Below, piece by piece: positions 1 to 35,867 of a DNA stretch of 35,867 nucleotides. The translations under genes and the position numbers were made by a program. Each line of letters begins with the position of its first letter. The stretch's first letter is position 1. Origin of the DNA: a virus (taxonomy: Duplodnaviria > Heunggongvirae > Uroviricota > Caudoviricetes); IMG/VR virus record IMGVR_UViG_2648501437_000030; one strand, given 5' to 3'. The notes beneath the pieces are model-generated. The model made no database searches. It saw only the letters and a program-made list of their open reading frames with translations, and was not told the DNA's origin.

Positions 1-909
1 ATGGGCTTTACCACAAGAGTAAAAAGCGAAGCGAGCGAGAAGAAACCGTTCAACTTTGCGCTGTTCTGGGATAAATACGGCACCTTTTTTATCCTGGCGA
101 TCATCGTCGCCATTTTTGGTTCGCTGTCGCCAGAATATTTTCTGACCACCAATAATATTACCCAGATTTTTGTTCAAAGCTCCGTGACGGTATTGATCGG
201 CATGGGCGAGTTTTTCGCTATCCTGGTCGCTGGTATCGACCTCTCGGTTGGCGCGATTCTGGCGCTTTCCGGTATGGTGACCGCCAAACTGATGTTGGCA
301 GGTGTTGACCCGTTTCTCGCAGCGATGATTGGCGGTGTACTGGTTGGCGGCGCACTGGGGGCGATCAACGGCTGCCTGGTCAACTGGACGGGGCTACACC
401 CGTTCATCATCACCCTTGGCACCAACGCGATTTTCCGTGGGATCACGCTGGTGATCTCCGATGCCAACTCGGTATACGGCTTCTCCTTTGACTTCGTGAA
501 CTTCTTTGCCGCCAGCGTAATTGGGATACCTGTCCCCGTTATCTTCTCGCTAATTGTCGCGCTCATCCTTTGGTTTCTGACAACGCGTATGCGGCTCGGG
601 CGCAACATCTACGCACTGGGCGGCAACAAAAATTCGGCGTTCTATTCCGGGATTGACGTGAAATTCCACATCCTGGTGGTGTTTATCATCTCTGGTGTTT
701 GTGCAGGTCTGGCAGGCGTCGTCTCAACTGCACGACTCGGTGCCGCAGAACCGCTTGCCGGTATGGGTTTTGAAACCTATGCCATTGCCAGCGCCATCAT
801 TGGCGGCACCAGTTTCTTCGGCGGCAAGGGGCGCATTTTCTCTGTGGTGATTGGCGGGTTGATCATCGGCACCATCAACAACGGTCTGAATATTTTGCAG
901 GTGTATTGA
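1..909 (+). CDS. Sugar ABC transporter inner-membrane permease (AraH/RbsC-type), C-terminally truncated by prophage insertion; last two codons and stop come from the phage end
   Basis: 302-aa polytopic membrane protein with typical permease glycine-rich helices; family members are about 320-340 aa and continue past the NGLN motif, whereas this ORF ends 2 codons into the Mu-like end (CAG|GTG TAT TGA). Confidence 0.8.
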   Translation: MGFTTRVKSEASEKKPFNFALFWDKYGTFFILAIIVAIFGSLSPEYFLTTNNITQIFVQSSVTVLIGMGEFFAILVAGIDLSVGAILALSGMVTAKLMLAGVDPFLAAMIGGVLVGGALGAINGCLVNWTGLHPFIITLGTNAIFRGITLVISDANSVYGFSFDFVNFFAASVIGIPVPVIFSLIVALILWFLTTRMRLGRNIYALGGNKNSAFYSGIDVKFHILVVFIISGVCAGLAGVVSTARLGAAEPLAGMGFETYAIASAIIGGTSFFGGKGRIFSVVIGGLIIGTINNGLNILQVY

Positions 910-1080
910 TTCACGAGAAGTACGAAAAATACCGGGAAGACATTGGATTATTCGGGATTTGACGGGATTTGATTTGGTGGGGCTTGCAAGCCTGTAGAGC
1001 AGATTTTAGTCGTTAAGCCGTGAAACGCGAAAGATTACCAGATAATGGCTTTGTTTCATTAAAAATACGAAAAACAAAAT
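902..1080 (+). repeat. Mu-type left end (attL) with terminal TG and three MuA-binding-type repeats
   Basis: TGTATTGATTCACGAGAAGTACGAAAAA at 902; CGTGAAACGCGAAAG near 1018; GTTTCATTAAAAATACGAAAAAC near 1053; near-identical to the Mu left end as recalled. Confidence 0.75.
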
Positions 1081-1226
1081 AACTACTGAACTTGCTTCTA
1101 AACAATTCAAAAAAGCTTCAAAACAAATAACAACAGGGCGACTGTTGAACGATTATACCGCAAAACAGTCTATAACATCCTAAACCCATTATTGAGGTAA
1201 GCCGTGCTTTAGTTCGCTCCTGGTTG

Positions 1227-2167: not shown

Positions 2168-4156
2168 ATGAAAGAGTGGTATACAGCGAAAGAATTGCTT
2201 GGTTTTGCTGGTTTGCCAAAGCAAGCAACTAACATTACACGTAAGGCACAAAGAGAAGGCTGGGTGTTTAGGCAAGTTACAGGTACTAAAGGTGTATCAT
2301 TTGAATTCAATATCAAATCATTTCCTGTTGCATTACGTGCTGAAATTTTATTGCAACAAGGAGGTATTGAAACAAGCCAGGGCCGTTTTGAAATCGCCCG
2401 CCCCACGCTGGAAGCCCATGATTATGATCGTGAGGCACTGTGGAGCAAATGGGATAACGCCAGCGATTCCCAGCGCAGACTTGCTGAAAAATGGTTGCCT
2501 GCGGTTCAGGCTGCAGACGAAATGCTGAACCAGGGGGTTTCAACGAAAACGGCATTTGCGACCGTTGCAGGACATTACCAGGTCAGCGCATCCACTTTGC
2601 GAGACAAATATTACCAGGTACAGAAGTTTGCGAAGCCTGACTGGGCGGCTGCGCTTGTTGATGGACGTGGTGCATCCCGTCGCAACGTTCACAAAAGTGA
2701 ATTTGACGAGGATGCCTGGCAGTTTCTGATTGCAGATTATCTGCGACCAGAAAAACCCGCCTTCCGCAAATGTTATGAGCGTCTGGAACTGGCAGCCCGC
2801 GAGCATGGCTGGAGTATTCCCTCCCGTGCCACGGCCTTTCGCCGGATTCAGCAACTGGACGAGGCAATGGTTGTTGCCTGCCGTGAAGGTGAACATGCAC
2901 TGATGCATCTGATACCGGCACAACAGCGAACTGTGGAACACCTGGACGCCATGCAGTGGATCAACGGCGACGGTTATCTGCATAACGTTTTTGTACGCTG
3001 GTTTAACGGTGATGTGATCCGCCCGAAAACATGGTTCTGGCAGGATGTGAAAACACGAAAAATTCTGGGCTGGCGCTGCGATGTAAGCGAGAACATCGAT
3101 TCAATTCGCCTCTCGTTCATGGATGTGGTGACACGCTACGGCATCCCGGAGGATTTTCACATCACCATCGATAACACCCGTGGTGCAGCGAATAAATGGC
3201 TGACGGGGGGCGCGCCCAATCGTTACCGCTTTAAGGTGAAAGAGGACGATCCAAAGGGGCTGTTTTTACTGATGGGCGCGAAAATGCACTGGACAAGCGT
3301 TGTTGCCGGTAAAGGCTGGGGCCAGGCAAAACCTGTTGAACGTGCTTTCGGTGTTGGTGGGCTTGAGGAATACGTTGATAAGCATCCGGCACTGGCTGGC
3401 GCATATACGGGGCCAAATCCGCAGGCAAAACCTGATAACTATGGCGACCGTGCTGTTGATGCAGAGCTGTTTCTGAAAACCCTTGCTGAAGGTGTTGCGA
3501 TGTTCAATGCCAGAACAGGTCGTGAAACAGAAATGTGCGGAGGCAAACTTTCGTTTGATGACGTTTTTGAGCGTGAATACGCCAGAACGATTGTGCGTAA
3601 GCCGACCGAAGAACAAAAACGGATGCTGTTGCTGCCTGCCGAGGCGGTGAACGTTTCACGCAAAGGCGAGTTTACGCTTAAAGTTGGCGGCTCCCTTAAA
3701 GGTGCAAAAAACGTTTATTACAACATGGCGTTAATGAATGCCGGCGTGAAAAAAGTTGTGGTCAGATTTGATCCGCAGCAGCTACACAGCACGGTTTATT
3801 GCTACACCCTGGACGGTCGGTTTATCTGTGAAGCGGAATGTCTGGCACCTGTTGCGTTTAATGATGCTGCGGCAGGCCGTGAATATCGCCGCCGCCAGAA
3901 ACAACTGAAATCTGCAACTAAAGCAGCCATTAAGGCGCAGAAACAAATGGACGCGCTGGAAGTTGCTGAACTGCTGCCGCAGATAGCCGAACCAGCAGCA
4001 CCAGAATCAAGAGTTGTTGGTATTTTCCGGCCTTCCGGTAACACGGTGCAGGTGAAATACCAGGAACCCGATGAGGAATATGAAACTGATCGTGATGAAT
4101 ATCTGAATCATTCGCTGGATATTCTGGAACAGAACAGACGTAAAAAAGCCATTTAA
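2168..4156 (+). CDS. A: DDE transposase MuA
   Basis: 662 aa; from about residue 65 onward near-identical to phage Mu transposase as recalled. Confidence 0.95.
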
Positions 4157-4194: not shown

Positions 4195-5133
4195 ATGAAT
4201 ATTTCCGATATTCGCGCAGGACTGCGCACGCTTGTAGAAAGTGAAAAAGCTACTTATGCACAAATTGCCCGCGAGTCCGGCGTGGCCGCAGGAACGTTAA
4301 GCGCATTCGTGAATAACAAGTACAACGGCGACAATGAACGTGTTGCGCAGACGCTGGAACGCTGGCTGGAGAACTATCACCGTGCCGCAGAGCTGCCAGA
4401 ACCACCGCGTTTTGTGGAAACCAGAACAGCACGCCAAATCTGGACGAGTATGCGTTTTGCCAGTCTGACTGAAAGTATTTCTGTTATCTGCGGTAATCCA
4501 GGTGTGGGAAAAACTGAAGCAGCCCGCGAATTTCGTCGCACCAATAACAATGTCTGGATGATCACCATTACCCCATCCTGCGCCAGTGTTCTGGAATGTC
4601 TCACTGAACTGGCGTATGAACTGGGAATGAATGACGCACCGCGCCGCAAAGGGCCGCTCTCCCGCGCTTTGCGACGCCGCCTTGAAGGTACGCAGGGGCT
4701 GGTCATTATCGACGAAGCTGATCATCTTGGCGCTGAAGTTCTGGAAGAACTCCGCCTGTTGCAGGAATCCGCCCGTATTGGCCTTGTTCTGATGGGGAAT
4801 CACCGCGTTTATTCAAACATGACCGGTGGTAACAGAACGGTTGAATTTGCCCGACTGTTTTCCCGTATTGCCAAACGGACGGCAATCAATAAAACCAAAA
4901 TTGATGATGTAAAGGCCATTGCGGATGCCTGGCAAATTACCGGCGAAAACGAGCGGGAATTATTACAGCAGATTGCGCAAAAACCAGGTGCACTTCGCAT
5001 CCTGAACCACTCGCTGCGCCTTGCGGCCATGACCGCCCACGGCAAAGGTGAACGTGTTAATGAAGATTATCTGCGTCAGGCTTTCCGTGAATTAGACCTC
5101 GACGTTGATATTTCAACCCTGCTGCGCACGTAA
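4195..5133 (+). CDS. B: Transposition ATPase / target DNA activator MuB
   Basis: 312 aa, N-terminal HTH, Walker A GNPGVGKT, Walker B IIDEAD; directly downstream of A. Confidence 0.9.
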
Positions 5134-8256: not shown

Positions 8257-8702
8257 AACAGATGAAAGAGCAGGATTTATTCGAAGACCTCCGGGACGAC
8301 AGCGTTCTGGAATATCTTCATGATTACCAGGAAAACACCGCTTATCCGGCGTTACTTTCTGAACTAAACGCACTGCTGCGTAAAGAGCTGGCCCGGATTG
8401 GCGCAGACCCTGCTCATTCCCTTGAGCTGGTTGTGGCGATTTGTCGCCATATCGGCGGGATGCAGGTTTATGTTCCGAGGGGGAATATTCTGGAGAATCT
8501 TGTCCGGGATATGCGTATCTGGCGTGATTTTAACGGCCATAATATTCCTGAACTGGTTCAGCGTTACGGAGTGACGTATAAAACCGTCTACAAGGCCATC
8601 AAACGGATGCGACGTCTGGAGCGCAATAAATACCAGCCGGATTTGTTTTACCCCTCCCCGAACCTGCCTCACCCCGTTCGTCGTCCGCCACGACGCCCTT
8701 AA
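8253..8702 (+). CDS. mor: Mor/C-family transcriptional activator
   Basis: 149 aa; DPAHSLELVVAICRHIGGMQVYVPRG and C-terminal HTH YGVTYKTVYKAIKRMRR match Mu Mor as recalled. Confidence 0.85.
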   Translation: MKQMKEQDLFEDLRDDSVLEYLHDYQENTAYPALLSELNALLRKELARIGADPAHSLELVVAICRHIGGMQVYVPRGNILENLVRDMRIWRDFNGHNIPELVQRYGVTYKTVYKAIKRMRRLERNKYQPDLFYPSPNLPHPVRRPPRRP

Positions 8703-8706
8703 TCAA

Positions 8707-8732
8707 TGAAGCCGGTAAATCCGGCTTTTTTT
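8707..8732 (+). terminator. Rho-independent terminator after mor (GCCGG-TAAAT-CCGGC plus T7)
   Basis: Short GC stem, 5-nt loop, T-run; the same 26-mer recurs at 16428..16453. Confidence 0.7.
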
Positions 8733-8787
8733 ATGCCTCCGGCACCATGAAGCAGACCACGTTTAACTCTGCTTCACAGGTGTTTTT

Positions 8788-9384
8788 ATGGAAAATCAAA
8801 AATTCTCCCCGGCCTTTGAGCATGCGCTGAATTTCATTCTGCGTCCCGATATCGAAGGCGTCTATGTCAATGACTCCACTGACCGTGGCGGCGAAACCAA
8901 ATACGGCATTTCTGACCGCCGCGACGGTGTGATTGACGGCAAAACCGATGTCAACGGTGACGGTAAACCGGATACCCGCATCAAAGATTTAACCCGCGAA
9001 CAGGCCGCACAGATTTACCTGCGTGATTACTGGCTGCCTGCCGGATGTGACCAGTGGCCTGATGGCGTGGCGCTTTTTGTGTTTGATGCGGCGGTTCAGC
9101 ATGGCGTTAAAAAGGCTATCAAACTTTTGCAGGAAGCCGCTGATGTGGATGCTGACGGCATCATCGGGCCGCGTACCCGCAAGGCCGTGAGCCAGTCCAC
9201 CCCTGACTGGCTGCTGGCCCGCTGTATTGTCCGTCGCTCCCGCTTTTATGCCGACATCATCAAATCAAAACCCGCCCAGGGCAAATACCTGAACGGCTGG
9301 TTTAACCGCATGGAAAAGCTGACCGACGCCTGTCTGGAAATCATCGATACCCCTCTGGGCATCATGTCCGCCACGCGGGGGTGA
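8788..9384 (+). CDS. Endolysin (GH108-like N-terminal domain plus C-terminal peptidoglycan-binding domain)
   Basis: 198 aa; DRGGETKYGIS catalytic-region motif and C-terminal GWFNRM motif; first late gene after mor. Confidence 0.8.
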   Translation: MENQKFSPAFEHALNFILRPDIEGVYVNDSTDRGGETKYGISDRRDGVIDGKTDVNGDGKPDTRIKDLTREQAAQIYLRDYWLPAGCDQWPDGVALFVFDAAVQHGVKKAIKLLQEAADVDADGIIGPRTRKAVSQSTPDWLLARCIVRRSRFYADIIKSKPAQGKYLNGWFNRMEKLTDACLEIIDTPLGIMSATRG

Positions 9385-9385
9385 T

Positions 9386-9613
9386 ATGGGCAAAGGCTGG
9401 GATGCCTCACTGAAAGCCGGGCGGCGTGACCGCCTGCGTCAGGAGGTTCTGCACCGCATGGCCGGAGGTCCGCCCCCGAAACCGCTGGACTATACCGGCC
9501 ATGACGGCACACACGCCAGCTACTACATGCGTGGCTGGAACTCCGTGGATACACGGGACGTTTTCTGGCAGTGCCAGAAGTACAAGGAAAAACTCAATGC
9601 ACAGAATGAATAG
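9386..9613 (+). CDS. Hypothetical lysis-region protein
   Basis: 75 aa, start 1 nt after endolysin stop; no family recognised. Confidence 0.45.
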   Translation: MGKGWDASLKAGRRDRLRQEVLHRMAGGPPPKPLDYTGHDGTHASYYMRGWNSVDTRDVFWQCQKYKEKLNAQNE

Positions 9614-10007
9614 TCTTTTTTATCGCGTTATGTACTCCCGCTTTATGTTGTCCACGTGGTCGTTTCTGGGGCTGTCGGCAGTGCTTTTTCTGGCGAGCTG
9701 TTTTGCCGGATGGCGGGCGTTTGCGGTCATGGTGTTGGCATATGGCGCGACACTCTGCCTGATTCACAGCTTTCAACTGGGCAATGTGCCTTATCGCTTG
9801 CTACCAAAAAGACGCTATCGACCAGCCTCTCGCCGTATTGTCGTGTGGTCATGGGTGGTCTGGTTCGTCGGGTATTTCATGTTGGTGTTCAGCATCTTTT
9901 TTCTTAAAGAGCTTTATCAACTGGCATTTTTGCTGGGCGGTGTCTGCTGCGCGGCGCTTTATAAACACCAGCGCCGTTTTCATAAGGGGGATTCATGGAC
10001 CCGTTAA
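9597..10007 (+). CDS. Polytopic inner-membrane protein in the lysis cassette (holin or exclusion-type candidate)
   Basis: 136 aa from ATG 9597; several hydrophobic helices (LSTWSFLGLSAVLFLASCFAGW, VVWSWVVWFVGYFMLVFSIFF). Confidence 0.55.
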   Translation: MHRMNSLFYRVMYSRFMLSTWSFLGLSAVLFLASCFAGWRAFAVMVLAYGATLCLIHSFQLGNVPYRLLPKRRYRPASRRIVVWSWVVWFVGYFMLVFSIFFLKELYQLAFLLGGVCCAALYKHQRRFHKGDSWTR

Positions 10008-10603
10008 CCCTTTCAGGCATCGCCTCTGTTCTGCTGAAAGCTGGGCCGGGGCTGATTCGTTCCGTCGGGCGCTGGTTTGGTGGCAGTACATCTGCCGCCG
10101 CTGACTCGGTGGCCGGTATGGTGGAAAGTGTCCGGGAAAGCCTGCCGGTGGCTGAACAGCAACGCATTCTGGAACAAAAACTGGTGATGTTGTCACCGGA
10201 GCAACTGATGCAGCTGGAAACCCTGAAAGTTCAGCTGCAACAGCTGGAGGTGGAACGGCAGAAGCTGGTGCTGGCTGACCAGCAGGCCGCACACCACGAA
10301 CAGCAGGAAACCATCCGCAATGGTGACAACGCCACGGACAGCTATGTGCGCCAGACACGCCCGCTGCTGGCCCGCCTTTCCTGTTACAGCAGTCTGGCCT
10401 ATGTGCTGTTGCTCTCCTGCGGCCAGATTGCCGGAGCCATTGCCGGTGCCAGAGGTATCACGCTGCATATGCCATCACCGGACTGGGATATCACGCTGAT
10501 GTTGCTTACCCCGGCGCTGGGCTATCTCGGTGTAAGAACCCTTGACGGCTTTGCCCGTTACAGCAAATCAAGCCGTCACAAAATGTCTGCGGGGCCGAAA
10601 TGA
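9995..10603 (+). CDS. Membrane protein with central coiled coil and C-terminal hydrophobic helices (3TM-holin-like)
   Basis: 202 aa, RBS AAGGGGG; coiled-coil QLMQLETLKVQLQQLEVERQKL; C-terminal TM segments. Confidence 0.55.
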   Translation: MDPLTLSGIASVLLKAGPGLIRSVGRWFGGSTSAAADSVAGMVESVRESLPVAEQQRILEQKLVMLSPEQLMQLETLKVQLQQLEVERQKLVLADQQAAHHEQQETIRNGDNATDSYVRQTRPLLARLSCYSSLAYVLLLSCGQIAGAIAGARGITLHMPSPDWDITLMLLTPALGYLGVRTLDGFARYSKSSRHKMSAGPK

Positions 10604-16288: not shown

Positions 16289-16427
16289 CCCTCCCGCCGT
16301 AAATCCCCCTGAAACGCATCAGAAACGCGTTTTTTATTCTGATGGTGTGAATGTGCATTCTGACTTTTTTGAAGGTGCTGTGGCGTTTTTGAAGGGGTTT
16401 TGAAGGGGGGGGGCTTCCCGTTTTCAG

Positions 16428-29586: not shown

Positions 29587-30582
29587 ATGTTTTATGTGGA
29601 TAACCCGACGGGTGTGCCGGTGATGCCACCTGTCGCGGCGGTATCAAGCCTGGCGACGCTTTATTTCACCGAAGGCGGGAACGGTATTCCGCCCACGTAT
29701 CCGGGGCCGGACTGGTTTAATATTATTCAGTCTGAACTGCTGGAAATTCTCCGGCAGGCAAATATCAAACCGGATAAAAATACCACCAACCAGATTATGA
29801 CAGCGCTGAAAAAACTGTTTATTACGAACAGTGGTTCAGCCGGTGCTATTGCCGGATTAACCGGTCAGAATAATACATTCCCTTATTTTACCGGCAAAGA
29901 CACAATGGCATTAACACCGCTCAGTGCGTTTGTGCGCAGTATTCTCGGGAAAAACAGCGCCAGTGAATTTATTAAAGCAATCGGCCTGTCACCAGACATC
30001 CTTTTATCAAAAGGACCGGTGACAGCATTAAGCAGTACAGCACAGGGCAATGCAGGACTTCAGATGTATGAAGTGTACAACAACGGCTATCCCACAGCTT
30101 ATGGCAATGTTCTGCATCTGAAAGGCGCGGCAGCATCTGGCGAAGGCGAACTGCTGATTGGCTGGAGTGGCACGAGCGGTGCGCATGCTCCGGTTTATAT
30201 TCGCTCAAGGCGTGATACCACCGATGCAGTCTGGTCTGAATGGGCGCAGGTGTTTACATCAAAAGACAGCTTCAACGCAGCATCCGCCACAAAACTACAG
30301 ACCCCACGCAAAATTAACGGTACGGCATTTGATGGCACCAGAGATATCACCATCAGCAGCACCGATTCTGGTGCTGTGCGTGATTTCAGATACACCAGCG
30401 AAGTGTTTCACAATCCCGGTGGTAACGAAATTTCCTGGGTATTCCGCGCGCCTTCAGGGTGTATTTTGTCAGGTATTAACGTTCAGGATACTGGCAGAAG
30501 TTCTGCGGATAACATCGGCGGCGTGTATTACAAACAAACCCAGATTTATATCAATGGCGGATGGCGCACGGTATCCGGCTAA
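29587..30582 (+). CDS. Tail fibre protein (Mu S-like, single fixed version)
   Basis: 331 aa; Gly/Ser/Thr-rich C-terminal region; followed by a U-like assembly gene. Confidence 0.75.
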
Positions 30583-30596
30583 TTAAGGAGAAAATA

Positions 30597-31127
30597 ATGG
30601 AACTCAGAAACGTCACGCGTTATTACCCGGAAGAGATGCCTTATGGTGAAAACATTCAGTATTTCCGCAGTGAAGACGGACAGGATTTTTATGAATCACT
30701 GGATAAATTCACGAAGAAATACAAATTGTGTATTCACCCGGAAACCGGCGTGATTTATTCAATGGCAGAAGACGTGTCCCGTCTTTATCCTGTTGGTTTT
30801 ACCATTGTGGAAGTGGATGAACTGCCGGAGGGTTTTGGCATCGAAGCCAGCTGGTATTACCGGGATGGCGAAGTACTGCCAGTTCCTGTTGATTATTCGA
30901 AACTGGCAGAAAAGCAACGTCAGCGCTTGCTGAATGAAGCAAAGGAAATCACTTCCGACTGGAAAACCGAGCTGGAGCTTGGCACCATCAGTGATGACGA
31001 CAAGGCCCGTCTTACGCAGTGGATGGAATATATCAAAGCGGTAAAGGCGCTGGATTTAAGCACCGTTACTGACGAAGCCTCCTTTAATGCCATCAACTGG
31101 CCGGAGCGTCCCGATGCCGCAGCTTAA
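30597..31127 (+). CDS. Tail fibre assembly protein (Mu U / Tfa-like)
   Basis: 176 aa from ATG 30597 (RBS AAGGAG); Tfa-type organisation. Confidence 0.75.
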   Translation: MELRNVTRYYPEEMPYGENIQYFRSEDGQDFYESLDKFTKKYKLCIHPETGVIYSMAEDVSRLYPVGFTIVEVDELPEGFGIEASWYYRDGEVLPVPVDYSKLAEKQRQRLLNEAKEITSDWKTELELGTISDDDKARLTQWMEYIKAVKALDLSTVTDEASFNAINWPERPDAAA

Positions 31128-33711
31128 AGGTGTGATTAAAACGCCCACGGGAGAACCGCTGGGCGGCGCAACCATTACACTGACCTCCCTGCACAACCGT
31201 GCAGGGATTCTGAAAGGTGTTTTCAGTCACGTCACCACACAGAATGGGGAATATAACTTCCCCGTTCTGCCGGGCGTGTACAGCGTTCGCCTGACGCAGA
31301 GTGTACAGCGCCTTTCAGAAATCGGTGTCATCCGCGTTTATGAAGATTCAGCGGATGGTTCGCTGAATGATTTTCTGGGCGCAACCGATATTGACCTGCG
31401 CCCGGAATCCCTGAAGAAATACGAGGAACTGGCACAGCAGGCGCAGCAGAGCGCGGAAGCCGCAGCAGAAAGCGAGCAGCAGGCAGGGCAACATGCAGAC
31501 GCTGCCGCCCGGGAAAAAGAAGAGGTAAAAAACCTGGCGGAAGGTGTTCAGCAGAACGCCGACGCGGTTGCGGAGGGTAAACAACAGGTCGAAACTCTGG
31601 CCTCAGAAGTTGGGCAGAATGCCGCCGCGGCAGCCATGAGTGCTCAGGAGGCGAAAGACGCAGCCGGGCATGTGCAGGGATTCATTCATGACCACCTTTC
31701 AGTATCAACCCGTTATTCGGTAACAGAGGCGAACCGTCAGCTACAGGCGTTGAGGATAAACAGCGGGCGCTACGAGGGGCTGTGGCGCTACCTGAATGCG
31801 AACGGTGGTATCAACTGGTATTTTCTGTTTCTTGCCGTGTATGAAAGTGAAGGAAAATGCTTTTCCCTCAGTGACCGTATGACAATTTGCGAAAAGGCGT
31901 TAAGACTGGGGCTTGTGGTTCCGTTTATGACAGGTTGCCGTTATGAAGCCGGGCAGCGCCTGACAATAGACGGCACGCTCTTTTTTGTTAATATCGCGGG
32001 CACCACCGGGGAAACGTTGCCTGATATCACCTCTGTAGCCCCCGGAGATTTTGTCCGGACTGGCTCCGCTGTGCTGGAGTGCCTGAAAAGCCCCTCAAAC
32101 CGAATCCCGGCTGCATGGCAGTATTTTTTTCTGGATGTGGCTCCGGATTTGTATACCCCCGTTGCGCCGGACTCCACGGACAGCTACCCGGCGCTCTGGT
32201 TCGCCTGCATTGCTGAATTTGCGGACAGTGCCTGGTTACAGGAGCCAGCCGGAATCGGCGGGTCCAGCCGCTGGGAAATCATAAAACAGGTGGCAAAGTT
32301 CAATATCGTTGCTGAAATAAATCCGGTGGCCAGTCTGGTAAACGTATTCCAGCACAATCTTGCACCCGGTGACCGGGCTTATGCACAGTGTTTTTGTCAG
32401 GATAACGCAGAGGTTTATGCTGGTTTACGTGCACTGAAAACACTGGCTGACCTTGCCGGAGATACCACTGCTGCAACTGAATATACCGCTGCCATGAAAA
32501 CCATCAGGGCTGGCCTGCTTGCGTTGTTTGTACCTGAACAAAAACGGTTCCTGACGTATTACAACGAGACGGATTACCCGGCAGAGCCTGGTGAAGGGCG
32601 TTTTGTTGATAAGGACCGTTTTTCTGTGGCCCCGTGGCGCTTTGGGGTGCTGGAAACACAGGAAGAAGTGGAACGGTACGGCAGGCAGGTTCTGGACGCC
32701 ATACAGAGTGCTTACCCGGACCTGTTCACGGCAAATTACGACGGCATTGATACGTTTGCCATGAGTGATTTTTTTGCTTTTGTGGCAAAGGTTACCACTT
32801 CTCAGACGGCAGCCACGGCTGCCATCAGACGCCTGCAAATCCGGGCGACATCTGCCGTCACGGTGGCCGACGTTGCCGCCGCCATATCCGTTACAGCCTG
32901 GGGAAAAATCCCACAGTTTCGTGCCTGTGATTTTATGCGCATCAACGGGCATTCCGTGCTCGGAGGGGGCGATATCACGCTGGGCGCGGCGACCACAATG
33001 GAGCCACAGAGTGATATTCGCGACAGGACGGAAGGCAGGCTGGCACTTCCCGATGCCTTCGGTTTTGGGCGTATATTCAACACAAACGAAACTGTCCGCT
33101 TTGACTCAGAAAATGATTTTCTGGTGTGGGTAAAACAGGTCACGCCAGGAGAATATTTTGTTGAGGGTGGCAATAAAATTATACCCAATGTGCTGTTCAG
33201 CGGGATTGTCAGTATTCGGTGGATTGAGTCCAGATATGCCACACCGAGTCCGATAAATACAGCAAAGGCGATTATTTTCTATGGTGTTAATGGCCACATT
33301 TATTACAACCGCTACTGGACCACAGGAAATGGTTATCTCATTGACTGGGAATCACTGAAGGTAACCTCGCAGGACATTATTGCTCTTCTGTCCGGCCTTG
33401 CTCCCGGAACTACAGATACCTGGTACGGCACTGGCAGCCTGATACTGGCGGCATATAACGGCCAGGGAAACGCAGACCCGGACCGCAGAATAAAGCGAGG
33501 TTACAGCTATCCTGGGTCACGTCTGAGTGCGGTTGAATTGATGTGTTACGGTACGACCGGGACCGGGGTTAAATACAACGGCAGTGTTTCTGTGTATGTT
33601 CAGGGTTCCGGTGGCGGAATGCCAGGCACATACCGGGCATTGTCGGGGAATGGACTGGGGTCTGCCGGTTCCGCCAGCGTCATGATTGGTCTGTTTATAC
33701 GAGTTGCGTAG
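31114..33711 (+). CDS. Lambda-Stf-like side tail fibre/tailspike with large central domain of unknown (possibly enzymatic) function
   Basis: 866 aa from ATG 31114; N-terminal domain (...VYSVRLTQ...IRVYEDSADGSLNDFLGA) matches lambda Stf family N-termini, then Ala/Gln/Glu-rich coiled coil, about 500 aa globular region, Gly-rich C-terminus. Confidence 0.75.
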   Translation: MPQLKGVIKTPTGEPLGGATITLTSLHNRAGILKGVFSHVTTQNGEYNFPVLPGVYSVRLTQSVQRLSEIGVIRVYEDSADGSLNDFLGATDIDLRPESLKKYEELAQQAQQSAEAAAESEQQAGQHADAAAREKEEVKNLAEGVQQNADAVAEGKQQVETLASEVGQNAAAAAMSAQEAKDAAGHVQGFIHDHLSVSTRYSVTEANRQLQALRINSGRYEGLWRYLNANGGINWYFLFLAVYESEGKCFSLSDRMTICEKALRLGLVVPFMTGCRYEAGQRLTIDGTLFFVNIAGTTGETLPDITSVAPGDFVRTGSAVLECLKSPSNRIPAAWQYFFLDVAPDLYTPVAPDSTDSYPALWFACIAEFADSAWLQEPAGIGGSSRWEIIKQVAKFNIVAEINPVASLVNVFQHNLAPGDRAYAQCFCQDNAEVYAGLRALKTLADLAGDTTAATEYTAAMKTIRAGLLALFVPEQKRFLTYYNETDYPAEPGEGRFVDKDRFSVAPWRFGVLETQEEVERYGRQVLDAIQSAYPDLFTANYDGIDTFAMSDFFAFVAKVTTSQTAATAAIRRLQIRATSAVTVADVAAAISVTAWGKIPQFRACDFMRINGHSVLGGGDITLGAATTMEPQSDIRDRTEGRLALPDAFGFGRIFNTNETVRFDSENDFLVWVKQVTPGEYFVEGGNKIIPNVLFSGIVSIRWIESRYATPSPINTAKAIIFYGVNGHIYYNRYWTTGNGYLIDWESLKVTSQDIIALLSGLAPGTTDTWYGTGSLILAAYNGQGNADPDRRIKRGYSYPGSRLSAVELMCYGTTGTGVKYNGSVSVYVQGSGGGMPGTYRALSGNGLGSAGSASVMIGLFIRVA

Positions 33712-33718
33712 GTGATTT

Positions 33719-34285
33719 ATGGAAGTAAAAAAAATCGAAAATGCGCGCTGGCTGGAAAGCGGCGCGATTGACTGCGACGTATTGTTTGAGGGGATGGACG
33801 AGGCCCTGCCGTATACAGCGACAGCAGACGATACCGCACCGACGGGCCAGCAAATCTGGCAGGAACTGCAAAGTGGCAAATGGGGTGAAATCGCCCCGTT
33901 TACAGTCACGCCTGAACTTATCGCAGCGGCAAAAGATGCCAAAAAGATGGAAATCGAGGCGTGGCGCACAGAACAGGAGGCACTGCCGTTCACGTTCGAA
34001 TGGAATGGCCGCACCTGGAATGCTGGCCCCGACTCAATGGCCCGTCTTTATCCGGTAGTAATGGCGGCGAAATCCGATACGGCACGAACCACCCTTGCGT
34101 GGGGTGATGCCGATAATCAACAGGTGAAACTGTCAATGCCGGAACTGGAAGAACTGGCGACAGCAATGGCGCAGGCACAGGTCGATCGCAATGACGAGAT
34201 TTATCAGCGCCAGCGTGAAATGAAGGAGCAGCTTTCCCGGCTGTCCATACTGGACGAGGTGAGAGCGTTATCGGTGATTAAATAA
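33719..34285 (+). CDS. Tail fibre assembly chaperone-like protein (DUF4376-type)
   Basis: 188 aa immediately downstream of the Stf-like gene; FEWNGRTWNAGPDSMARL motif typical of fibre-adjacent chaperone-like proteins. Confidence 0.6.
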   Translation: MEVKKIENARWLESGAIDCDVLFEGMDEALPYTATADDTAPTGQQIWQELQSGKWGEIAPFTVTPELIAAAKDAKKMEIEAWRTEQEALPFTFEWNGRTWNAGPDSMARLYPVVMAAKSDTARTTLAWGDADNQQVKLSMPELEELATAMAQAQVDRNDEIYQRQREMKEQLSRLSILDEVRALSVIK

Positions 34286-34404: not shown

Positions 34405-34590
34405 ATGGACTCTGTTCGCTGTAAAAACTGCAATAAATTACTGTTTAAAGGAGGTTTTAAGCATATAGAAATTAAATGCCCTCGCTGTAAACGTTACATT
34501 GTCATATCGAATGCCAAAGAGCATCCCACGGAGCTGTATTGTGGGAAAAGAGAAGAAATCACGCATTCTGACAAAACCCTGCGTTATTGA
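34405..34590 (+). CDS. com: Com zinc-finger translational activator of mom
   Basis: 61 aa from ATG 34405 (RBS AGGGGG); ...[26 protein letters not shown]... near-identical to Mu Com as recalled. Confidence 0.85.
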
Positions 34591-35245
34591 GTATGAAGGC
34601 CGGATTGTCGGCTATGGTTCAAGGGAGTTGCGCGTTGAAACCATATCCTGTTGGCTGGCCCGCACAATCATTCAGACAAAACACTATTCCCGCCGTTTTG
34701 TGAATAACTCCTACCTGCATCTGGGCGTATTCAGCGGACGTGATCTGGTTGGCGTTCTTCAGTGGGGATATGCCCTTAACCCCAACTCAGGGCGTCGTGT
34801 TGTGCTGGAAACGGATAACCGGAGCTATATGGAACTGAACCGCATGTGGTTACACGACGACATGCCCCGCAACTCTGAATCACGGGCCATCAGCTACGCG
34901 CTAAAAACCATCAGACTACTGTATCCGTCAGTGGAGTGGGTTCAGTCTTTTGCCGACGAACGCTGCGGACGCGCTGGTGTGGTATATCAGGCGTCGAATT
35001 TTGATTTTATTGGCAGCCATGAAAGCACGTTCTACGAGCTGGATGGTGAGTGGTATCACGAGATAACGATGAACGCGATTAAGCGTGGAGGGCAACGAGG
35101 CGTGTATTTGCGGGCTAATAAGGAGCGGGCCGTGGTACACAAATTTAATCAGTATCGCTACATCAGGTTCCTGAATAAGCGCGCAAAAAAGCGACTAAAC
35201 ACTAAGCTATTCAGGATTCAGCCATACCCCAAAAACACATCTTGA
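34511..35245 (+). CDS. mom: Mom DNA-modification enzyme (adenine N6 carbamoylmethyl-type modification); start codon uncertain
   Basis: ORF open from 34499 (TTG); in-frame ATG 34511 and GTG 34541; overlaps the 3-prime end of com; sequence closely matches Mu Mom as recalled. Confidence 0.85.
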
Positions 35246-35363: not shown

Positions 35364-35867
35364 ATGATGCGCAAAGCTCTCAAGATGGTCCTTATTACTA
35401 CAGCGATAATCTCACCAATAGCGCAGGCACAATGGCTAACCCAAACCGAAGATGACTTGTTTTCTGATGGTAAAAAGGCAGCGATGATTGGTGAAACGTC
35501 ATCTGACAATAGTGCGATCATTTTCAATTGTACAAAAAATACTCTTACCGCTGCATACGTGGAGATGGACAAAACACACGAATCAACAGCCAAAATGCCA
35601 ATGGAGTTGGTGATGAAAGTTGATGGAAATAACGCACTCAAATTTAACGCAACGCTTTCAAGAAGGAACGTGCAAGCTCTCGAAATTGCAACTAATGATG
35701 CTGAACAACTCAAAATTCTTCTCAAACAACTGAAGGAAGCCAAATCTCAAGTATTGGTTGGCGCGCAAACAGAAGATGGCGGCAGCAAATTTTCCCTTTC
35801 TGCTAATGTGTCCGGCTCAACTTCTGCTGTTAATAAGTTTGTAGCGGCATGTGAAATAAAATTGTAA
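35364..35867 (+). CDS. Exported protein of unknown function (cleavable signal peptide), cargo gene downstream of mom
   Basis: 167 aa, RBS AGGAAA; signal-like N-terminus MMRKALKMVLITTAIISPIAQAQ; two Cys in mature part; lower GC than phage core; stop at the last base of the window. Confidence 0.6.
   Translation: MMRKALKMVLITTAIISPIAQAQWLTQTEDDLFSDGKKAAMIGETSSDNSAIIFNCTKNTLTAAYVEMDKTHESTAKMPMELVMKVDGNNALKFNATLSRRNVQALEIATNDAEQLKILLKQLKEAKSQVLVGAQTEDGGSKFSLSANVSGSTSAVNKFVAACEIKL

Follow-up and report, generated by a model that had tools for sequence, protein, structure and literature searches.

A Mu-type prophage truncates the D-allose permease gene alsC in an operon that probably already carried an inactivating frameshift

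The stretch of DNA analyzed here (the window; 35,867 nucleotides from IMG/VR virus record IMGVR_UViG_2648501437_000030) opens with a reading frame for a sugar-transport permease that runs directly into DNA resembling the end of a Mu-type phage. Did a transposable phage enter this gene and cut it short, and if so, was it the phage that cost the strain its transporter? A preliminary description, made from the window alone, had proposed that Mu-style, near-random transposition removed about 25–30 residues from the C-terminus of the permease and thereby probably inactivated the transporter. Here, we consider the interrupted gene, the exact boundary between host and phage, the nature of the inserted element and of its copies at other sites, and the state of the operon in which the insertion lies.

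The open reading frame at positions 1–909 (+), which has an ATG start and encodes 302 amino acids, matched the NCBIfam model for the D-allose ABC transporter permease (NF007252) at 602 bits, where the curated equivalog cut-off is 396 (E = 2.6e-181), and the sugar-transport permease that had been noted from position 1 is thus AlsC of E. coli. The match covered model positions 1–301 of 326 and stopped short of the full length that includes the C-terminal helix; the match to the Pfam family BPD_transp_2 likewise covered positions 1–252 of 269. Intact AlsC has 326 residues in both strain 2011C-4251 and K-12, and alignment to these full-length orthologues, which the preliminary description had put forward as a check, found none that ends where the window's frame does. 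Residues 1–301 of the window protein were identical to those of the 2011C-4251 protein, whereas residue 302 was Tyr instead of Gln and was followed by a stop. In nucleotides, the sequence ...TTG CAG GTA CAA ACC... of the intact gene corresponds in the window to ...TTG CAG GTG TAT TGA, of which the last four codons occupy positions 898–909. The 302-residue frame therefore consists of native codons 1–300, a hybrid codon 301 (G from the host, TG from the phage) that still specifies Val, and a Tyr302 codon and TGA stop (907–909) made of phage-end bases. As the preliminary description had it, the frame closes at a TGA within the first 8 bp of a Mu-type end.

The residues lost number 25 (QTYYQLVVMGGLIIAAVALDRLISK), at the lower edge of the range that had been expected. 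They contain the last strongly hydrophobic segment of AlsC (residues 307–325; mean Kyte–Doolittle value 2.05), which we placed by hydropathy because a sequence search of the PDB returned no AlsC homologue at E ≤ 0.001. With this helix missing, loss of permease function would be expected for the 302-residue protein. Judged by its sequence, the alsC of the window is a truncated member of its family that yields a pseudogene product, and the frame in the source strain should be annotated as a prophage-disrupted pseudogene. An antisense frame of 144 codons (174–608, −) lies wholly within alsC and is most likely spurious. A scan of the whole window against Rfam found no family at the gathering score, and a scan of positions 700–2300 for promoters and terminators found nothing above chance.

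We located the boundary between host and phage by a megablast search of window positions 1–1100 against 5426 complete E. coli genomes. The alsC gene was present in 3392 of them, and in 3373 the identity with the window extended over positions 1–902 and then ended; the junction between alsC and the phage was found in none of the 5426. Host gene and phage end both have a T at base 902. The flanks of other copies of the prophage assign this base to the phage, so that host DNA ends at 901 and the true boundary is 901|902. Alignments to the genome records of SfMu, D108, and Mu also pair base 902 with base 1 of each phage. Positions 902–909 are the phage end, TGTATTGA, whose bases 6–8 supply the TGA of the alsC frame. 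The host pentamer abutting it, GCAGG (897–901), occurs once in intact alsC and is presumed to be the left copy of a 5-bp target duplication. The same junction was reproduced base for base in an independent Logan assembly of sequencing run SRR19671065, which was identical to the window over 5770 bp. Apart from that run, the source assembly (GCA_001266005.1) was the only place in which we found this insertion site, which seems to be unique to the source strain and this one run.

From base 902 (TG) to its last base, 35,867, the window consists of a Mu/SfMu-type transposable prophage on the + strand, as delimited by alignment to base 1 of SfMu, D108, and Mu. In relatives, the prophage continues for 188 bp past the point at which the window ends, to ...GCGCCGCCTCA. 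Ten relatives had an identical 188 bp here, ending ...TTTTCGTGCGCCGCCTCA, and then passed into ten different host sequences; the right terminus, CA, is common to these 10 and was read in them, and we infer the same terminus for the source. On this basis, the whole prophage would be about 35,154 bp long, with its last 188 bp outside the window. Both of its ends were colinear with those of Mu at roughly 85–90% identity. The attL-type left end (902–1080, +) corresponds to Mu bp 1–178 and contains candidate transposase-binding repeats detected by a motif scan, examples being TGATTCACGAGAAGTACGAAAAA near the tip and TGTTTCATTAAAAATACGAAA at 1052–1072. The motifs repeated there (...TTCAC/T...CGAAA) are, we presume, bound by transposase as they are in Mu, and we refer to the repeats as L1–L3 on the assumption that they correspond to those of Mu. 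At the other end, the last 120 bp, as read from relatives, aligned with the last 120 bp of Mu (attR).

The gene content and gene order are also those of a Mu-type phage. Directly inside the left end lie a Mu c-type repressor of 174 residues (1227–1751, −; PF02316, HTH_Tnp_Mu_1), which has the position and strand of Mu c and whose counterpart in strain RM11911 is annotated as a DNA-binding protein, and a Ner-like early regulator of 73 residues (1939–2160, +; PF13693, HTH_35) in the position of Mu ner. These are followed by a MuA-type DDE transposase of 662 residues (2168–4156, +), with HTH_Tnp_Mu_1, HTH_Tnp_Mu_2, DDE_2, and Mu-transpos_C domains, and by a MuB-type AAA+ activator of target DNA of 312 residues (4195–5133, +), with AAA_22 and Phage-MuB_C domains. 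The order c, ner, A, B, kil, gam, gemA, mor, lysis is that of Mu, and the later part of the prophage is made up of head, tail, and baseplate genes and then com and mom. A start at phage base 1 and the c, Ner, MuA, and MuB genes in sequence bear out the proposal of Mu-style transposition into the gene.

The right arm has some features of its own. The tail-fibre module (29587–34285, +) encodes proteins of 331 residues (without a Pfam match), 176 residues (Caudo_TAP), 865 residues (phage_tail_N), and 188 residues (DUF4376), and the gene calls of the prophage included neither a gin invertase nor G-segment genes. Two tail-fibre genes of the copy in RM11911 are listed in RefSeq as partial pseudogenes; the same frames are open in the window. 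The com and mom genes (34405–35245, +) were assigned from Zn_ribbon_Com and Mom matches in relatives whose last 10.5 kb are identical to the window, and they give the prophage a Mu-type right arm. Between mom and the phage right end lies a frame of 167 codons (35364–35867, +) with a signal-peptide-like N-terminus (MMRKALKMVLITTAIISPIAQAQ...), whose stop codon is the end of the window. Its protein has no Pfam hit on record and is listed in 215 blocks of the collection; the frame is a candidate cargo (moron) gene. Taken together, the inserted element is a Mu-type transposable prophage and is apparently complete.

Copies of the prophage exist at other sites. The complete genome of RM11911 has one that splits gspE and is flanked by a perfect 5-bp duplication, TCCCG. 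From end to end, this copy and the window are distinguished by 4 SNPs and one poly-G tract, and their last 10.5 kb are identical. The poly-G tract, at 16404–16413 between the minor-head-protein and protease genes, reads G9+C in the window versus G7+TC in RM11911, which could reflect a homopolymer sequencing error or a tract that is genuinely variable. A copy in XJ6-3 with the same ends splits mdtO between perfect 5-bp duplications of GCGTT; its first 1298 bp match the window exactly, and its last 10.5 kb contain 33 mismatches. Among the relatives fetched, we counted 16 distinct right flanks, corresponding to at least 16 different sites, 10 of which fit the N-Y-S-R-N target preference of Mu, compared to about 2 (12.5%) expected by chance. 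The alsC pentamer, GCAGG, fits two of the three specified positions, with the Y and the R as preferred and the central S not. The copies in gspE and mdtO, with their clean duplications, support the near-random mode of transposition that had been proposed, and Mu-family phages are described as integrating nearly at random and causing mutations (PMC4406740). Near-identical copies in many different E. coli genes, in isolates from cattle, humans, and other sources, suggest that this prophage is a currently active transposable phage.

The right junction lies beyond the window. The window corresponds to positions 58737–94603 of source contig JHSO01000025.1 (GCA_001266005.1; 94,793 bp), in which 190 bp follow it; 188 of these should be phage, so that by arithmetic only about 2 bp of the contig seem to lie past the right terminus of the phage. 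A simple insertion would give a right junction that contains TTTTCGTGCGCCGCCTCAGCAGGTACAAACCTATTACCAACTGG and reads ...CCGCCTCA|GCAGG|TACAAACC..., with the terminal CA of the phage directly before GCAGG; a second GCAGG and a 79-nt remnant of alsC are thus predicted at this end. The predicted junction, GCGCCGCCTCA followed by GCAGG and TACAAACCTATTACC, had 0 matches in viral, genome, and metagenome collections. A control search with the left junction, which is present in the window, also gave 0, indicating that the source genome is absent from those three collections and that the zero for the right junction carries no weight. Exact look-ups of the 167-, 331-, and 865-residue proteins of the right arm returned only other genomes among the matches listed, and a literature search for a paper on WGS accession JHSO00000000 found none. 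The NCBI and Logan assemblies both break at phage ends. These breaks suggest that the reads join the phage ends to more than one neighbouring sequence, as a result of extra copies or of ongoing transposition.

Could the junction at alsC be something other than one side of a simple insertion? Mu-type phages are known to generate adjacent deletions and inversions, and the phage end at alsC could mark one border of such a rearrangement, whether an adjacent deletion or inversion left by replicative transposition or a recombination between two prophage copies, in which case the 3′ remnant of alsC would not adjoin the right end and might be missing altogether. The state of the assemblies leaves room for this reading: the right junction falls outside the window, the source contig stops an estimated 2 bp past the phage right terminus, and the Logan contig includes 29 bp of the left end before it stops (window position 930), such breaks being what an assembler produces when phage ends have more than one read context. 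The target itself, with two of three preferred positions, can also be counted against a simple insertion. However, an assembly can also break in this way if the phage transposes spontaneously at a low level in the sequenced culture, or simply through the usual complexity of assembly graphs; the two copies in complete genomes whose left and right ends we checked had each inserted cleanly, with a 5-bp duplication; and nothing positive favours a deletion. We therefore regard a rearrangement as unlikely.

Two further readings would remove the insertion into alsC altogether. In one, the junction is a chimera of assembly, and the real genome has an uninterrupted alsC and a prophage at some other place; the window does come from a draft assembly, and its contig does terminate at the other phage end. 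This reading would have to account both for the identical junction in the Logan assembly of SRR19671065 and for a break whose position coincides to the base with the canonical TG terminus, base 1 of three phage genome records, a precision expected of transposition and not of misassembly, and we give it scarcely any credence. In the other, the permease occurs naturally in a 302-residue form, and its gene simply ends where the phage begins. The existence of the open 302-codon frame is all that speaks for this. We rejected it as practically inconceivable: NF007252 has 326 positions and was matched through 301 only, AlsC has its full 326 residues in K-12 and 2011C-4251, whose genes both run 79 nt past the junction, and the 3373 complete genomes that match the window do so up to position 902, after which the window departs from all of them.

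A truncated permease gene is one thing, and the loss of a transporter to the phage is another. The permease is part of an operon, and in the source contig the gene order is rpiB, alsR, alsB, alsA, and then alsC, which is the upstream half of the expected alsR-alsB-alsA-alsC(-alsE-alsK) context. AlsA, AlsB, and AlsC jointly form the allose uptake system (PMC9633178). The alsA gene, for the ATPase subunit (piece coordinates 8491–10022), lies directly upstream of window position 1 in the contig, with its 3′ end overlapping the start of alsC by 22 nt (window positions 1–22, +), and it is annotated as frameshifted in 2011C-4251. In the source contig, it is a pseudogene, split into frames of 291 and 205 codons. 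Alignment with K-12 revealed the deletion of a single base at nt 868, where AAA has become AA (GAGAAATATT to GAGAATATT), which leads to a stop at codon 292, just ahead of the second ATP-binding domain. The alsA sequence of 2011C-4251, a complete genome in which RefSeq labels the gene 'frameshifted', was identical to that of the source base for base.

The deletion is not confined to the source strain. An exact 61-mer spanning it was found in 30 of the 3375 complete genomes that have alsA, and none of these 30 carried the prophage in alsC. A deletion common to 30 genomes that lack the insertion argues, by parsimony, that the frameshift preceded it, so that the order of lesions was probably frameshift first and phage second, and the als transporter of this lineage was probably already broken when the phage arrived. 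The transporter thus appears to be inactive in this strain, as the preliminary description had concluded, but the insertion is probably not the cause: the alsA frameshift is lineage-wide and is present in 30 prophage-free genomes. A new phenotype is unlikely to have come from the insertion. Genes can be visibly disrupted without phenotypic effect, and we suggest that this disruption probably marks the tolerated decay of a dispensable rare-sugar operon.

Taking these results together, a simple Mu-style insertion into alsC of an already frameshifted operon is very probably the correct account as a whole. According to this account, an SfMu-like temperate phage would have integrated through MuA/MuB-catalysed transposition into codon 301 of alsC, with its left end facing the 5′ part of the gene. 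Translation of alsC into the phage end (G|TG TAT TGA) would add a single Tyr before the stop and would give the 302-residue product, from which 25 C-terminal residues, and with them the final hydrophobic helix, are missing. The insert of ~35 kb would also separate alsE and alsK from the operon promoter; by analogy with known Mu insertion mutations, polarity on both genes would be expected. The event would be strain-specific and recent, probably selectively neutral, and probably not the source of an allose-negative phenotype.

One feature of the phage right end bears on the host DNA beyond it. An outward-facing ATG lies 35 nt from the terminus and opens a frame into whatever host sequence adjoins; in RM11911, the same ATG heads a called frame of 118 codons that includes the 3′ part of gspE. 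An insertion in alsC would place this ATG in the reading frame of the 25 lost codons, and the predicted product is a peptide of 39 residues that carries the last transmembrane helix of AlsC. An exact-sequence look-up of this predicted 39-residue junction product and of ten edge-truncated forms found none on record; frames as short as 39 codons are rarely called. We consider it very doubtful that insertions of this phage family translate, and possibly even transcribe, downstream host fragments from the right-end ATG. Were they to do so, polarity would be softened or new small membrane peptides would be made.

How does this prophage compare to phages that are already known? The closest sequenced phage is SfMu (KP010268 / NC_027382; PMC4406740), with 92.8% identity over 87% of the first 7.1 kb. 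Both have a Mu-type early region and a com/mom right arm, and the match between them runs from base 1. They differ in length (37,146 bp for SfMu versus 35,154 bp for the prophage), in the 13% of the early region that does not align, and in the tail-fibre module, with neither gin nor a G segment among the gene calls of the prophage; the prophage also has the additional 167-codon frame between mom and the right end. Mu (NC_000929) and D108 share with the prophage TG...CA termini, colinear attL/attR repeats, and the c-ner-A-B order, and they share with its copies at other sites the 5-bp target duplications, the N-Y-S-R-N preference, and the many sites within genes. Their identity to the prophage is about 88–90% in the matching parts only, which in the case of Mu amount to 69% of the early region. 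The right arm of the prophage departs from that of Mu, in which gin accompanies an invertible G segment and mom lies directly beside attR, with nothing at the site of the 167-codon frame.

The consequences for the host gene also resemble those of classical Mu insertion mutations, in which the phage end supplies a new stop to an interrupted coding sequence and downstream genes of the operon, here alsE and alsK, are cut off from their promoter. Classical Mu mutants were laboratory products, however, whereas this insertion was found in a natural isolate and in a target operon that already had an inactivating frameshift in alsA. On the defining features that can be tested, the alsC case is a textbook Mu-type insertion, made by a member of the SfMu/Mu/D108 group.
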